NCBI RefSeq assembly: GCF_024298765.1
Contig: NZ_CP101210.1
Strand: one strand, 5' to 3'
Source of the DNA: Escherichia coli
GTDB lineage: Bacteria > Pseudomonadota > Gammaproteobacteria > Enterobacterales > Enterobacteriaceae
DNA: 64,000 nucleotides
Of this stretch, positions 30,001-39,000 are shown one piece after another (position 1 is the first letter of the stretch; every line of letters starts with the position of its first letter). The position numbers are program-made.

Positions 30001-33000
30001 GGATACCCCAGATATGAGATATCTGAAGTGGTCTTTTTTGGCCTATGATACGGTCTTTGTTCCACGGTGACGTGTTCATACTCAAATCTCCTGCAATGTG
30101 GGAGATTTGAGTATGGTTGTCCTTATGAGCGAGGCGCGGAAGCTCACTTTAGGGCAATCTAATTCACATGTCAGAGGATTTATAAAAAGAGAATAGTGCA
30201 GATTTTAGGGATACTTACACTTGCTATGGCATACTTTTTGGGACCCCATCAGTTTAGGGATCTGAATCGCCACAGCTTTGGTAGGCACCTGCTTTATGGT
30301 CACGTGCACCCGAAGATCCTGCGGGTACGCATGGGTCACGAAAAGTACGAGTCTACAGAAGTTAATTTACGGTTTTTTGCGCTCGATGTGGCTGCCAGCT
30401 ACCAAGTCCAGTTTACACTGGATACAACTAACGCGCTGTAGCAACTGCGTGGTGGAAGCTGATTAAAGGAGATAATGATGTTCGATGTTGACGATACTGC
30501 ACCCGATACTCCCGCCCCCCGTGAACTCAGTCAGGATGTGCAGGCGCTGATCAACAATGGTCTGGATTTTCTGGATAAAGCCCGTGAAGAGTTGGAGGCC
30601 TCGAAGCCGAAGTTCTCCGTCGTCAGTTTCTGGACTGCGGTCGAGATTTTACTGAAAGTTCCGCTGGCGCACGAACACTGGTCGTTGGTCTGCAGCCCGA
30701 AAAAGCCAATAAAAAAGCAGGCTTACCTAGCCGGTGATTTTCAGTCGGTGACCTACGAAGAAACCCGTGAAAGGCTTAAGGACGTACTTGAAAGACCCCT
30801 AGACAGAGAAACGGACAGTGCTTTTGATAAGGTCAGAAAGCACCGCAACCGCGTAGTTCATTTCTACCACCCCACTTTCACCGAGGCTGAACAACGTCAA
30901 ATACTCAAAGAACAAGCTGACGCCTGGTTTGCCCTGAACCGGTTATTAAGGGATGAATGGAAAGTTATCTTCGGTGTCAAACATAATTGGAAGCTGGCTT
31001 TCGGTGAAACTCGTCTGATTAGGGGAAACAAATTTTATGCCGAGGTGCGGTTTAAACAGGTTAAGCCTGAACTCGAGCAGCTCTCTGAAAAGAATATTCA
31101 AATCGGTAACTGCAATGAGTGCCATCAGCATGCGACGGTAACAGGGACTGAAACGACCGGTAATGAAAACCGTAAGCTTGAAGTTACGCGGTGTAAGGTT
31201 TGCACCAGTGCTGTAAGGCAAATTACCCTAGTTTGTCCAGACTGCGAAATACCTCAATTGCTACCTGAGGGAGATAGTGATTTTGAATGCGAACACTGCG
31301 ACTACACTTCGGATAGGTATAAACTGCTGGATGAGGAGTTGTTCCACAGTGTGGATGAACAGCTACTCTCCGTATTTCCTGCTGGATGTACCAATTGCAT
31401 GACTCCTGAAAGCGTATGTAAATTTGGAGACGGCTATCTTTGCACTCAGTGTTTCATCTATTACACCGAGCTTCATGTATGTGGTTGTTGCGGTCACCTG
31501 AGCGATAGCGTTCCTGAACTGAGCCATATCCGAGGATGTGAATTTTGTGATGGTGACCAACGTTATTTTGATGACTGAATTACCATACATAATCTAGGCT
31601 CTTCAGGGATGGGTTGGACAGTCCGCTCCTGGCACAGAGCGGACTGTCAGATTAGATTCAGACCTGTACTCATTAGCTGATACAAATCAGCCACATATAC
31701 CTGCATTCCAAATAATTTCAGGCAGATATTATCTCCGTGAATCCCCCCGCCACCTTTCCGGTGCGCGGGGTTTTGTCTTTTTTCACCGGGAATACATGTA
31801 TGAATCCGTCTGATGCCATTGAGGCAATTGAAAAACCGCTCTCCTCCCTGCCTTACTCACTTTCCCGTCACATCCTGGAACATCTGCGCAAACTCACCAG
31901 CCACGAACCCGTGCCTGGCATTATGGGTAAAAGCGGGGCCGGTAAATCCTCACTCTGTAATGCACTGTTTCAGGGGGAGGTCACCCCGGTCAGTGCACTC
32001 ATGACAGCGCTTCCCGGACATGCCGCCATCCCTCTGATGACACGCCTGCAGGACGAACTGCGCACGGAGTCTGTCCGCACTCAGACCCGTGAACAGTTTA
32101 CCGGTGCGGTGGACCGGATATTTGACACGGCGGAGAGTGTCTGTGTTGCCTCTGTTGTCCGTACGGCCCTGCGCGCAGTTCGTGACACGGTGGTCTCTGT
32201 TGCCCGCGCGGTATGGAACTGGATTTTCTTCTGAACCCGGTGGTGATGTACCAGGCTGTTGTTACAGATTTTTAACTCCATGAAAACACTATGCAAACGC
32301 AGCTATACCCGGGGTGTCCCCTTGCGTTGTGCTTCCCAAGTTAATAGAATACATCGATCGTTACTATCATATCGATCGTTATAAACGATCGTTTGTAGTA
32401 AATGACCTCCTCCGTGGTTGTCATGAAAATGCGTCTCAGGAAGGTTAAATAATGCACGAAAAGAACATCGCCCTGCTTTGTGATGAAGCCGACCGACTTT
32501 TGCAACTGAACATTAATCTGCTCCGGCAAATGGTTGAGGAGCCAGATGTGTTATCTGACAGTAAGAACGAAAACAGACTGCTTTTTGATAAACAGAAAGC
32601 ACTGAAAAGAATTGAGGAGCTGGAGGGCGAACAAATCAAAACCGCCCGCAGGGAGATGGTGCTGGCTGTTGTCGGCACGATGAAAGCAGGCAAATCAACC
32701 ACCATCAACGCCATTGTGGGGCAGGAAATTCTGCCTAACCGTAACCGCCCCATGACCTCTGTACCGACGCTCATCCGCCACGTTCCCGGAAAAACTGAGC
32801 CGGTTCTCCATCTGGAACATATTCAGCCTGTCCGCAATTTATTAATCACACTGCAGGAAAAACTCGCCACCCCGGCAGGACAGCAGGTCGCACAGACCCT
32901 GCAGCAAACCGGGGATACCCGCGAACTGCTGGATATTCTGACGGATGATGGCTGGCTCAAAAATGAATACCACGGGGAGGAGGAAATCTTTACCGGACTG

Positions 33001-36000: not shown

Positions 36001-39000
36001 TTCATTGCTGAAAAAACTGCTCCCGGCCATGAACCTCTGCCAGCTCCCCGGACGTGCGGGCGCACTGCTTACGACGCTTCTTCACCATATATCGACAATC
36101 AACAGGTTTGACAATCTGATGACTCAGCCGTTGTTGTCAGATGGGCCCCTGACAGTGCTGATGGATCATTATCTTGATACTGATGATCTGGCTGACGGGC
36201 TACCGTTGTATGTGTCGCTGTACCCCACGGAAGGGGGAATGCAGGATATTATCGACTGCATTCGTGCTGAACTGGGTACCGGAACTACAAAAAACTCCGT
36301 TTTTCAGCATATCCAGAGCCTGCCCCACGGGCAGCAGAAAGAAGCCTTACTGGCGTCAGCAGCACTGCCCCTGCTGTTCCGTCCCCGTGAGGTACAGGGA
36401 AAAATGTACGGTGATGGTGGTATGGGCGGATGGCAAAATATGCAGGGGAATACCCCTGTGACGCCACTGGTGGATGCCGGATGCAATATGGTGATTGTGT
36501 CGCATCTGAGTGACGGTTCTTTATGGGATCGCCGGGCTTTTCCGGACACCACAATCCTTGAAATCCGTCCCCGGAAAAAGCTGAAACAAACAGGGGAAGA
36601 AGGCAAAAGTGGCGGTCTGCTCAGTTTTACATCGGCACATATCGACACCTGGCGTCAGCAGGGCTATGAAGACACGATGCTGGCGATGGAGCATATCCGG
36701 AAACCACTGGAGGCGCGTCAGGCACTGACCCGGTCAGAGGCGGTGTTGCAGAAAAGTCTGGAGAAAACGGAAGAGGCAGATTTGGCACTGAGAAACGCGA
36801 TGGCCCGGATTAAATAAAGACGCCCCAAAGAAACGCCACCGCCTGTGGTGGTGTTTTTCCTGGCTGGTGTTATTGAAAATATTTTCAGATATATATTACC
36901 CGGACGATGGTTAAGATTGATTTATTTAATTTTGGGGAGAAAATTATGAGACTGTCAAATATTTTCCTGGCTGTAGTTTTAACTGTGACCGTATCTGTAG
37001 CACACGCTATTCCAAATATGTGGGGCAGTGGCTTCACGATGGGCGTTACTGAGTTCAGTATTGATAACGGTAAGTGGGGTATCAATATCAGTTGCACAGG
37101 TAACCCCAACGAAAACAATGTGCTGGCGCACACAATCTATATTTACAAAGGAGATAAGGTGGTCGCAAACTCGGAAGAAAAAAATATTAGTTTCGTTATT
37201 GACGGTGAAGAATTCTGGGGTGTGGTTCCTGACGGTACCCGTATGAACGATAACGCCTGGGTTAGCTTTGTAAAAGCAATAAGCACTGCAACCGGGTTTG
37301 AACTGTACATAAACGAGAAGAAAGTTGCGACGTTTAACCCGTCTGCCAAAAACGTTAAGAAAGTGATGGATAATAACTTTATCCAGTCGTGCTGGAATAC
37401 CTGGTACGAATAACGATTACAGGAGAGGGGGACTTCCTGGCCCCCGATTTATTTAAGGAGTGCATGAAATGAAACATTTTTTAATTCTGGTTATCGGTTT
37501 ACTCATTTCCATCACCGCGACTGCCGAATCGCTGGGTCAGTTTGAAGAGGATATCACCGGTTTTCCGCAGGGAGTATGGTTTTACAAAGAAAAAGCAGGC
37601 TGGAAAAACGAAACCGGGTATAAAAAAGAATATTTAAACAGTCTCCTCTATAAGGCCGAAGAAATTGCGAATTATCCGGGTAACAGATACACGATTTACC
37701 GTAGTAAAAACAGCAGCATAATTTTCGTCGCTGACAACGAAACCAGGACTTTCTACTTGCTAAACAACAAGGACGCCTTATGGTCTGATATTCAGATCGG
37801 GTATTGGGCTGAGAACAAAAACTCGTGTCACTACGTCTTTGTCGATACTCAATACCTTGCGCAAAGTAACGAACTTGACGAGTTCTTTCGAACCGGGGTG
37901 CTCGATACTCATGGTGTTGGTGAATCGGATCGTAAAGTAAAAGAGATCAGACAAAAACATAAGACTCATGTCTTACTCCGCCTGCCTGCGCAATGTGTGA
38001 ATGATGCGATCCTCAGCAGAATGAATAAGTCCGAACGTCGTGATCTAATGAAAGCGCAAGAAGATTTCAAACAATATCTTGCCAGAATGGAGCTGTAAGT
38101 ATTCAACCTTTTCGCAACTGTGAGTGAAATGAAAATCAAAACTATACTTTATACTATCATTCTTTTCTGTGAAATTGGCATCACCGACACTTATGCACTC
38201 GGTGGTTCGGATATCCGTCACTGCGAACCAACTGAAGAATCTGTAATTATTAACCCGGACGAGTCACCGGTGTTAATATATAGCTTCAGTAAACACGAAG
38301 TGTATAAACTGATGCAGGGGGATACCTGCACTGGGCTAGTTATTAGCGATAAAAAGCCAAAGCCTGTCCACGTTTAATGGACATCGCTTGCGAACCGCCA
38401 GAAGTCATGTCTGCCAGCATTCATCTACTGGCCGCGGATAATTATACGACCATGGATTTCTGCCATAACGCCGAATTAATCGGTCGTATTCCGTAAGCCG
38501 TGGTATCGAATAATTTAAGAAGGATTTTTATCATGAAACACCGACACATTTTAACGTTCTTTGTTGCTTTCCTGTTCATGACTATCGTACCTGATAGCGA
38601 CGCCGCATTAGTAAAGCGTCCTGAGAAAGGTCGTGCACCGTTCCCGGAATATGTGGAGTTCGCGCAAAACCGTAACCAGTTCCCATGTAATGCACGTTTA
38701 CGCTTTAAAGGTCTCTGCTTTGTTGAACAAACTGACCCCTGGGGTGCAGCAAGCGTTGTCCGAATCCCTTTCAATTCCCCCAATGGTAAAGGCAGACTTA
38801 ACGCTTATGGCGTGGTTGTTCATGCAATAATGGTTGGTGATGTTGTCGTTGGTGGCAGCTATTCAACTGGCAAGAATGTTACCTGGAATTTCGATACGTT
38901 TTATAGGGAGGGTAAACGTCGCGGTAAGGTGACCTTTTATGTTGATGGTAAATACTGGCACTATCGCGACTATCCACTCGAATAATCCATAACGAACAAA

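Follow-up and report, generated by a model that had tools for sequence, protein, structure and literature searches.

A widespread operon of a dynamin-like GTPase, a YjcZ/RdcB-family protein and a patatin-like phospholipase, preceded in Escherichia coli by a predicted antigen 43-type switch

The patatins ExoU and VipD are silent until a protein cofactor binds to them, and CapV, the patatin of the cyclic oligonucleotide-based antiphage signaling systems (CBASS), is a membrane-degrading effector that remains inactive until its signal, cyclic GMP-AMP, activates it. The patatin VpdC is activated by ubiquitin (PMC9860323). Dynamin-based phage defence has its cited precedent in Eleos, also named 'Dynamins', which consists of LeoA and LeoBC (PMC12922286). 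In Escherichia coli K-12, RdcA (YjdA/CrfC) and RdcB (YjcZ) activate DgcE by a direct interaction that depends on GTP hydrolysis, and RdcA was reported to be soluble and cytoplasmic (PMC6510439). Here we analyze an E. coli operon that encodes a dynamin-like GTPase (gene 1), a YjcZ/RdcB-family protein (gene 2) and a patatin-like phospholipase (gene 3), hereafter called the trio, which is located on the plus strand at positions 32452-36817 of a 64,000-nt stretch of contig NZ_CP101210.1 (the window). We propose the trio as a candidate defence module in which the first two proteins would hold the lipase in check, and we describe a predicted phase-variation switch in front of it.

The three open reading frames (ORFs) are intact and form a well-delimited, self-contained operon. 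Gene 1 (32452-34848, +; 798 aa; Pfam Dynamin_N, 1.6e-17), gene 2 (34845-35750, +; 301 aa; Pfam YjcZ, 6.3e-71) and gene 3 (35747-36817, +; 356 aa; Pfam Patatin, 1.1e-24) are connected by 4-nt overlaps, GTGA at the first junction and ATGA at the second. A Shine-Dalgarno sequence, AGGAAGG (32438-32444, +), can be read 7 nt 5' of the gene 1 ATG, and a terminator scan revealed an intrinsic-terminator-like element at 36837-36858 (+; CACCGCCTGTGGTGGTGTTTTT), consisting of a 7-bp GC-rich hairpin (36837-36853) and a TTTTT run. No signal peptide or transmembrane segment was predicted in any of the three proteins. The gene 1 product contains the motifs GTMKAGKST (residues 75-83), DTPG (235-238) and NKFD (298-301), its Dynamin_N match covers residues 71-299, and the G1, G3 and G4 residues are invariant across 41 homologues. 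In the gene 3 product, SGGGAVG (residues 12-18), GASIG (40-44) and DGG (223-225) were located; across 18 homologues of 47-93% identity there is no variation in G13-G15, G40xS42xG44 and D223-G225, and the same 18 proteins conserve a family-specific C-terminal motif, W302..QGYxDT (WxxQGYxDT). Gene 3 is therefore predicted to encode a cytoplasmic phospholipase whose oxyanion hole, Ser42 nucleophile and Asp223 are intact. The original prediction for this locus, made from the DNA alone, had claimed three translationally coupled genes, dynamin-type GTPase motifs, a full patatin catalytic set and a hairpin followed by a T run, and had proposed a check by Pfam profiles; all of these features were recovered, and the profiles agree with the assigned families.

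Among the Escherichia alleles all three ORFs are intact, with ratios of nonsynonymous to synonymous divergence (dN/dS) of 0.09-0.6. The divergence between these alleles is mosaic when window positions 32452-36817 are compared with loci L093, L094, L095 and L002: gene 2 alleles share 98-99% nucleotide identity (dS 0.009-0.06), and gene 1 and gene 3 alleles share 91-97% and 92-94%, respectively (dS 0.06-0.24). The pattern suggests that gene 2 was the centre of recombination or gene conversion, or else that the outer genes diversified.

To the original prediction the trio was cargo of an E. coli island, a view that is too narrow. Relatives were collected with a lipase-alignment scan using one genome per species, which gave 334 confirmed relatives, and in the best 80 loci the gene order was determined with iterated profiles on six-frame ORFs. 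In 60 of these 80 loci the order dynamin-like, YjcZ-like, lipase was found on one strand; since the order recurs in so many loci of different species, the arrangement is far beyond chance. Six loci have the YjcZ-like gene and the lipase alone, three of them being cut by a contig end, and 14 have the lipase alone, mostly in one Synergistaceae clade. The 60 trio loci represent at least ten phyla, with gamma-, beta-, delta- and epsilon-proteobacteria, Cyanobacteria, Paenibacillus, Bacteroidia, Verrucomicrobia, Neomarinimicrobiota, Gracilibacteria and Myxococcales among them, and -4 nt is the commonest spacing at both junctions. As judged from these comparisons, the trio is an ancient, phylum-spanning module. 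The co-occurrence check that had been proposed turned out positive, the three-gene arrangement being conserved across genomes; in the sampled neighbourhoods, defence genes often lie beside it. Within E. coli, the 4.6-kb unit is present in 2444 of 5426 complete genomes (45%; at least 80% coverage) in 1 to 5 copies, where RefSeq labels the products dynamin family, RdcB family and patatin-like phospholipase family protein; it was also found on 44 of 72,556 plasmids from E. coli, Klebsiella, Enterobacter and Citrobacter. No match was obtained among 50,697 phage records, and a phage origin was rejected on this ground together with the single partial match in 2.9 million viral contigs and the absence of a PHROG.

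Several loci deviate from the standard arrangement. The lipases of the Synergistaceae lipase-alone clade (L048, L049, L053, L054, L056, L059, L060, L062 and L064) comprise about 320-330 aa and have no C-terminal extension. In two actinobacterial loci, L074 (Actinomadura macra, 3912-9050) and L081 (Streptomyces), both the YjcZ-like and the patatin genes are longer (381-429 aa), and a dynamin gene was not detected in either locus; upstream in L074 lie a 653-aa ORF with weak Hsp70/HscA-like similarity, which may represent a swap of the NTPase, and a coiled-coil ORF. A second dynamin-like gene stands beside the trio in four loci, 3' of the lipase in L040, L058 and L068 and upstream in L023. The 1688-aa dynamin-like ORF of the Synergistaceae locus L042 (1290-6353) might represent a tandem fusion of the DynA kind. 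Truncated lipases of about 237-262 aa are frequent among the E. coli protein clusters, and in public records such truncated copies are misnamed 'ferredoxin reductase' (clusters P0017, P0045 and P0055).

The closest described relatives of genes 1 and 2 are rdcA and rdcB of K-12, to which they are full-length paralogues in the same order and with the same 4-nt overlap (34% identity to RdcA and 31% to RdcB over the full lengths). Against the NCBIfam CrfC equivalog NF007368 the gene 1 product scored 566.7 bits at a cut-off of 1146, residues 1-797 aligning with 1-736 of 742; because of this score below the cut-off and the 34% identity, we regard it as a paralogue of RdcA/CrfC and not as an orthologue. 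The gene 2 product is named 'diguanylate cyclase regulator RdcB family protein' in RefSeq. Its predicted structure is all-alpha with one helix of 70 residues (predicted local distance difference test, pLDDT, 82.2), and no relative of known structure was found either by sequence or by fold search. The YjcZ family is rare, with 717 representatives (E <= 0.001) among 1.84 billion proteins, yet phylogenetically wide. Unlike the trio, K-12 rdcAB has no adjacent lipase, as the original prediction had stated for crfC-yjcZ, and the gene for its target, DgcE, lies at another place in the genome. The two also differ in regulation, rdcAB being part of the flagellar regulon and the trio standing behind a predicted agn43-type promoter. 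In neighbour-joining (NJ) trees of both proteins, K-12 RdcA and RdcB form a long branch inside the enterobacterial trio-linked sequences. This suggests that rdcAB is a derived form that lost its lipase, a placement which is provisional since the trees carry no support values.

With Eleos, which is encoded in defence islands, the trio shares a dynamin-like GTPase and, in some of its loci, a place among defence genes, but Eleos contains neither a YjcZ partner nor a patatin. Membership in Eleos was rejected on score (LeoBC, E = 1.6e-4 and 18.9 bits with 0 stretches passing; no match to LeoA). CapV is, like the predicted gene 3 product, a cytoplasmic patatin with the same catalytic motifs, and weak N-terminal matches were obtained with PADLOC and NCBIfam. 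Membership in CBASS was rejected as well, the NCBIfam CBASS_lipase score being 18.3 bits at a cut-off of 200, and a CD-NTase cyclase was annotated neither in the near-identical locus L001 nor in the Pfam-annotated related loci. The proposed activator of the trio lipase differs from that of CBASS in being a protein GTPase pair rather than a cyclic nucleotide, and the C-terminal WxxQGYxDT module is likewise a point of difference. With VpdC, ExoU and VipD, the gene 3 product has in common the patatin enzyme and, as we propose, inactivity until a protein cofactor binds; those enzymes, however, are secreted and activated by host proteins, whereas gene 3 and its presumed activator are bacterial, cytoplasmic and co-encoded. 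The PADLOC search that had been proposed names no such system, its matches to LeoBC and to a CBASS-type phospholipase (1.6e-4 each) being marginal. In the literature, a full-text search did not find the trio named as a system. The claim that the system is undescribed holds in so far as the combination is unnamed and its function untested, and fails in so far as RefSeq already annotates the three genes and a 2026 RNA-seq paper had drawn attention to them as a putative defence operon, with no functional test (PMC12922286).

The original prediction had read a palindromic array upstream of gene 1 as a dedicated operator. Three 11-nt repeats with a CGATCG core are indeed present at 32353-32394; they are not dedicated to the trio, being instead the homologue of the switch of flu (agn43, antigen 43) and cah. 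When positions 32150-32460 are compared with the yeeP-flu intergenic region of K-12, a homologous yeeP end is followed by a poorly conserved stretch and then by a conserved block, TAATAGAATA.A.CGATC..TA.CTAT..TATCGATCGTT....CGATCG, which contains the flu -10 element and three GATC sites. The same block lies 5' of cah in strain 272 and 5' of the trio in ST131, WP8 and E. albertii. A sigma-70 promoter is predicted at 32322-32350 (+; -35 TTGCGT at 32322-32327, a 17-nt spacer, -10 TAGAAT at 32345-32350), and its block TAATAGAAT is invariant in the trio upstream regions of the window, ST131, WP8 and E. albertii as well as in K-12 flu and strain-272 cah. The isrC of K-12, which is the flu leader, has its annotated 5' end 6 nt past the same TAGAAT. 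The element at 32322-32350 is homologous to the flu/cah promoter and presumably acts as one.

The putative Dam/OxyR-type switch extends over 32353-32390 (+), where GATC sites at 32356-32359, 32374-32377 and 32387-32390 overlap a predicted OxyR site at 32353-32389. None of these three GATC sites varies among the sequences aligned, six in number: the four trio upstream regions, flu and cah. The OxyR consensus ATAGnTnnnAnCTAT-N7-ATAGnTnnnAnCTAT is matched at 16 of 20 positions, which makes this the top site of the 64-kb window (0.07 such sites are expected by chance per shuffled window); the OxyR site of K-12 agn43 matches 14 of 20 positions in the same register. It is by such a sequence match that OxyR binding over the GATC sites is predicted. 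We consider the upstream region of the trio to be very probably homologous to the flu/cah switch, given the same -10 element, the corresponding GATC positions, the OxyR-consensus site and the same place after yeeP. A role of the repeats as binding sites of a dedicated local regulator was rejected, because of this homology and because trio loci outside Escherichia have no such array. The differences are that the three genes behind the switch encode cytoplasmic proteins, where flu and cah encode autotransporter adhesins, and that the long flu leader is missing: the K-12 IsrC (L092, 1818-2012), which is the flu leader and starts at GATC-I, is matched at the trio over its first ~70-80 nt (window 32356-32451). 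An Rfam scan of 32100-37000 found no RNA family, so that IsrC is unrecognisable there.

At agn43, methylation of the GATC sites by Dam blocks OxyR and gives the ON state, while OxyR bound to the unmethylated sites gives the OFF state (PMC3764049, PMC2909390, PMC4872104). As the three GATC sites overlap the OxyR site, the Escherichia trio is predicted to be heritably ON when Dam-methylated and OFF when bound by OxyR, and real phase variation of its expression in Escherichia is probable on these sequence grounds. A literature search found no paper tying Dam or OxyR to the trio operon. Nissle 1917 and ST131 are among the E. coli genomes in which switch and trio are joined (1980 of 5426), and the junction is also seen in E. 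albertii, with all three GATC cores kept. A second type, found in a minority of E. coli genomes (O157:H7; strain 272, L093 51-7364), has the order yeeP-like GTPase, switch, cah, trio, the trio starting 110 nt 3' of cah. No promoter-like or terminator-like site was found in this 110-nt gap, and in the cah type one switch may drive cah and the trio in a single transcript. The arrangement in the window resembles this island minus its autotransporter, or the history may have run in reverse.

The yeeP-like GTPase remnant of the window (31737-32234, +) is an ORF with a GKSGAGKSS P-loop, and it aligns at its 3' end, stop codon included, with the yeeP pseudogene of K-12, which sits just upstream of flu, the gene carried by the CP4-44 slot of MG1655; the remnant belongs to the island backbone and lies outside the operon. 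Downstream of the trio follows a DUF932/antirestriction/JAB (yeeS/RadC-type)/CbtA-type block, as deduced from the near-identical annotated locus L001. The slot after a decayed yeeP and before an antirestriction, radC and toxin-antitoxin block had been recognised beforehand, together with the statement that the trio stands where flu usually is; the position after yeeP is correct, and the likeness goes further, for the trio stands behind a flu-type promoter and switch as well.

Such a switch bears on the RNA-seq report mentioned above. There, the trio operon was expressed and was, of all gene clusters, the one that differed most between two isolates, with a strong 'induction' in the Kapi1 lysogen; phase variation, Ag43 and methylases are not mentioned in the text (PMC12922286). 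A heritable ON or OFF state of the trio switch would produce a difference of this kind between isolates, and the published expression contrast may be a phase-state difference. A prophage effect on Dam or OxyR may also lie behind it. The other island genes that were up in the Kapi1 lysogen (PMC12922286) are hyxRAB. These genes are reportedly phase-variable too. The pitfall of phase states that differ from clone to clone has been documented for agn43 (PMC3764049).

The neighbourhoods of the trio offer a further line of evidence. The only recurrent neighbour is a WYL/WCX helix-turn-helix regulator encoded upstream on the same strand in ~11 of the 60 trio loci; flanking genes are otherwise unrelated between species, and a conserved fourth gene was rejected, as clustering of 433 flanking ORFs gave none. 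Regulators of the WYL/WCX type control the bacteriophage exclusion system (BREX) and CBASS. In Vibrio vulnificus, a WYL regulator lies immediately upstream of the trio and BrxL/PglZ downstream, on an element with relaxase and resolvase genes, while a BrxR-type WYL regulator, SIR2 and an integrase are located near the trio of Pseudomonas fluorescens, and the Pectobacterium trio is on a CP4-like island. A PADLOC scan of 28 large flanking ORFs from 20 loci, a sample without genome-wide background, detected beside the trio a type IIG restriction-modification enzyme (1e-263), PifA (4e-109), a type IV restriction enzyme (5e-89), PDC-S26 (2e-60) and several helicases. The sampled neighbourhoods support a defence-island habit of the trio. 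A 'dGTPase' on a Klebsiella plasmid (L097, 6977-9004) was discarded as a defence neighbour, since it occupies the dynamin position after an IS1 transposase and overlaps the RdcB-family gene; this coding sequence is most likely an IS1-truncated, misannotated dynamin gene.

Since RdcA and RdcB activate their target by contact, since other patatins depend on cofactors, and since the trio is inherited and translated as a unit, we propose that the GTPase pair gates the lipase. Gene 1 with its partner gene 2 would be the sensing and switching part and the gene 3 patatin the output enzyme, kept inactive by the pair until a trigger changes the state of the GTPase; candidates for the trigger are infection by a phage, damage to the membrane or collapse of the GTP pool. 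The released lipase would then hydrolyse inner-membrane phospholipids, and the cell would stop growing or die, so that the trio would defend by a type of abortive infection, with mobile islands and plasmids as its carriers. In Escherichia, its placement behind an antigen-43-type promoter would add bet-hedging, as ON and OFF phases could coexist for a potentially costly system. The sequences show the three genes with their domains and catalytic motifs, the conserved trio, its neighbours and the homology of its upstream region with the flu/cah switch; complex formation, lipase gating, the trigger, the defence phenotype and actual phase variation are what we infer here. A lipase that is gated by the GTPase and its partner, acts as a suicide or defence effector and is expressed phase-variably in Escherichia has in our estimate slightly less than an even chance (about 0.45). 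A bolder version is rather unlikely: an uncharacterised phylum-spanning anti-phage or suicide system with a GTPase-licensed lipase, of which K-12 RdcA/RdcB would be a domesticated remnant rewired to DgcE, and for which Escherichia would have captured the Ag43 switch.

Several observations weigh against this proposal. System-level matches for the three proteins were found in none of the PADLOC, NCBIfam and PHROGs scans, and the literature search found no experiment that connects the trio with resistance to phages, with an activity of the lipase or with the death of cells. Many flanks gave no PADLOC match (in the sample of 28 ORFs and 20 loci, which lacks a matched background), and on the CP4-type islands that carry the trio in enterobacteria the other cargo consists of adhesins and toxin-antitoxin pairs, not of defence genes. 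Close lipase homologues in Synergistaceae have neither partner nearby. With respect to the switch, GATC-I and GATC-II are 18 nt apart at the trio and 19 nt in flu and cah, and the competition of OxyR and Dam might therefore behave differently here; moreover, trio upstream regions outside Escherichia contain no switch or CGATCG array, so that phase variation would be a local addition rather than a property of the module itself.

The structure predicted for gene 1 brings up a different function. Its AlphaFold2 model (pLDDT 81.8; predicted template modelling score 0.71) consists of a GTPase domain followed by long helical hairpins (residues 399-797), and the top Foldseek matches, all at full length, were the bacterial dynamin-like protein BDLP (2j69; 4.5e-14), SynDLP and IniA, these three with probability 1.00, and mitofusins. 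According to this model, gene 1 encodes a full-length bacterial dynamin-like protein with a helical neck and trunk. The fold, a GTPase with helical neck and trunk, is the same as in BDLP, DynA, SynDLP and IniA (Foldseek 4.5e-14 to 1e-10), but sequence identity to BDLP-type proteins is 12-16%, no hydrophobic paddle was found in gene 1, and those proteins are not encoded together with a lipase. A search for a paddle or transmembrane tip in the gene 1 product found no 19-mer above 1.16 on the Kyte-Doolittle scale. A Trp-rich motif is duplicated in the C-terminal helical half, at residues 528-548 (34033-34095; SGLWGKISQWSGINNPGWEDY) and 669-689 (34456-34518; SGVWGTVCRWFGTSDLGWENY), in a region predicted as beta-hairpin and low-confidence loop; the second copy is conserved family-wide, while K-12 RdcA has a single copy. 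In the model these motifs could serve as a membrane- or partner-binding element.

On this basis the trio might serve membrane maintenance or remodelling, the dynamin tethering, fusing or sealing damaged inner membrane like DynA of Bacillus subtilis and the patatin supplying lysophospholipids or removing damaged lipids; protection from phage or stress would then result from delayed lysis and not from killing of the cell. The full BDLP/mitofusin architecture of the gene 1 model and the duplicated Trp-rich motif, with its family-wide second copy, are consistent with such a role, and bacterial dynamins have been cited for membrane stabilisation and population-level phage resistance (PMC12922286). 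Lysolipids made by the patatin VpdC can serve membrane expansion (PMC9860323). However, no hydrophobic paddle or transmembrane segment was found in any of the three proteins and RdcA is reported to be soluble and cytoplasmic (PMC6510439), and a housekeeping role fits poorly with a patchy, island- and plasmid-borne, multi-copy distribution and with regulators of the WYL type. We regard membrane maintenance as an unlikely explanation.

An addiction or competition module that stabilises its island or plasmid is a less probable one. The patatin would be a toxin restrained by the GTPase pair, in the manner of the neighbouring CbtA/CbeA, and the company of the trio agrees with this, as it travels with toxin-antitoxin genes on CP4-type islands and lies beside ccdAB and RES-domain genes on IncR and other plasmids. 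The truncated patatin genes that are common in the E. coli protein clusters are compatible with a cost of the enzyme. On the other hand, known addiction modules are far smaller than this 4.4-kb unit of three genes, one of which encodes a GTPase of 798 aa, and the trio occurs also in chromosomal contexts without obvious mobile genes. Because many defence systems are toxin-antitoxin-like, this explanation overlaps with the proposed gated defence effector.

That the trio is a second RdcA/RdcB-type regulator of cyclic di-GMP and biofilm formation, with the lipase as an accessory, appears quite improbable. The homology of genes 1 and 2 to RdcA/RdcB and the RefSeq name of gene 2 would favour it, and the Ag43 switch, or the place after cah, would couple the trio to aggregation, the regulatory region being common to the trio and the aggregation adhesins flu and cah and the trio directly following cah in some strains. 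Yet the two pairs share 31-34% identity, and gene 1 reaches half the cut-off of the CrfC equivalog; the trio occurs in cyanobacteria, Firmicutes, Bacteroidia and further groups, where a DgcE orthologue would not be expected; RdcA and RdcB are placed by the NJ trees as a long derived branch inside the trio-linked proteins; and the near-obligate linkage to the lipase would be left unexplained. A host-directed virulence phospholipase like ExoU, VipD or PlpD can practically be dismissed: the best PDB sequence matches of the gene 3 N-terminus are PlpD, VipD and ExoU and the carrier islands are called pathogenicity islands in extraintestinal pathogenic and Shiga toxin-producing E. coli, but the matches are confined to the first ~60 residues, gene 3 shows no signal peptide, autotransporter domain or secretion-system linkage, and the module is present in free-living cyanobacteria, sulfur bacteria, soil Paenibacillus and the probiotic Nissle 1917.

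The component families, the RefSeq annotation and the published guess at a defence function (PMC12922286) were already known; new here are the recognition of the upstream array as a homologue of the Ag43-type switch and the view of K-12 rdcAB as what looks like a lipase-less derived branch. The trio is common and unstudied, being carried by almost half of the sequenced E. coli, with Nissle 1917, ST131 and O157 among them, and by Klebsiella and Enterobacter plasmids. If the gated defence effector is real, a dynamin-type GTPase that gates a lipase would represent a new activation logic in bacterial immunity, the YjcZ/RdcB family would have a general role beyond one K-12 pathway, and the trio would join the small number of defence systems under Dam/OxyR phase variation; for thousands of proteins, the RefSeq name 'diguanylate cyclase regulator' would then seem too far-reaching. 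Single-colony isolates differ in the state of genes behind an agn43-type switch, so that a contrast between transcriptomes can be an artefact of phase. The trio should be easy to study, since a dam or oxyR background should lock the switch OFF or ON.

Some further features of the window surround the trio. Upstream of the yeeP remnant, a 367-aa ORF (30475-31578, +) with a Cys-rich, zinc-ribbon-like C-terminal half is a 'hypothetical protein' in RefSeq and matches PHROG 37794, of unknown function, nearly end to end (1e-202). Four small ORFs with signal-peptide-like hydrophobic N-termini (36907-37413, 37460-38098, 38120-38377 and 38500-38985, all +) are located between the trio terminator and the DUF905/DUF932 block; one of them matches phrog_3429, of unknown function, and two might be among the 'five-gene cluster' of PMC12922286. 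The window contains one tRNA-Gly and two tRNA-Asp genes (27824-27898, 48618-48694 and 56843-56919). The trio island ends near a tRNA-Asp gene, resembling the pathogenicity island PAI-CFT073-aspV, and integrase fragments are found at ~29.5-30.4 kb.

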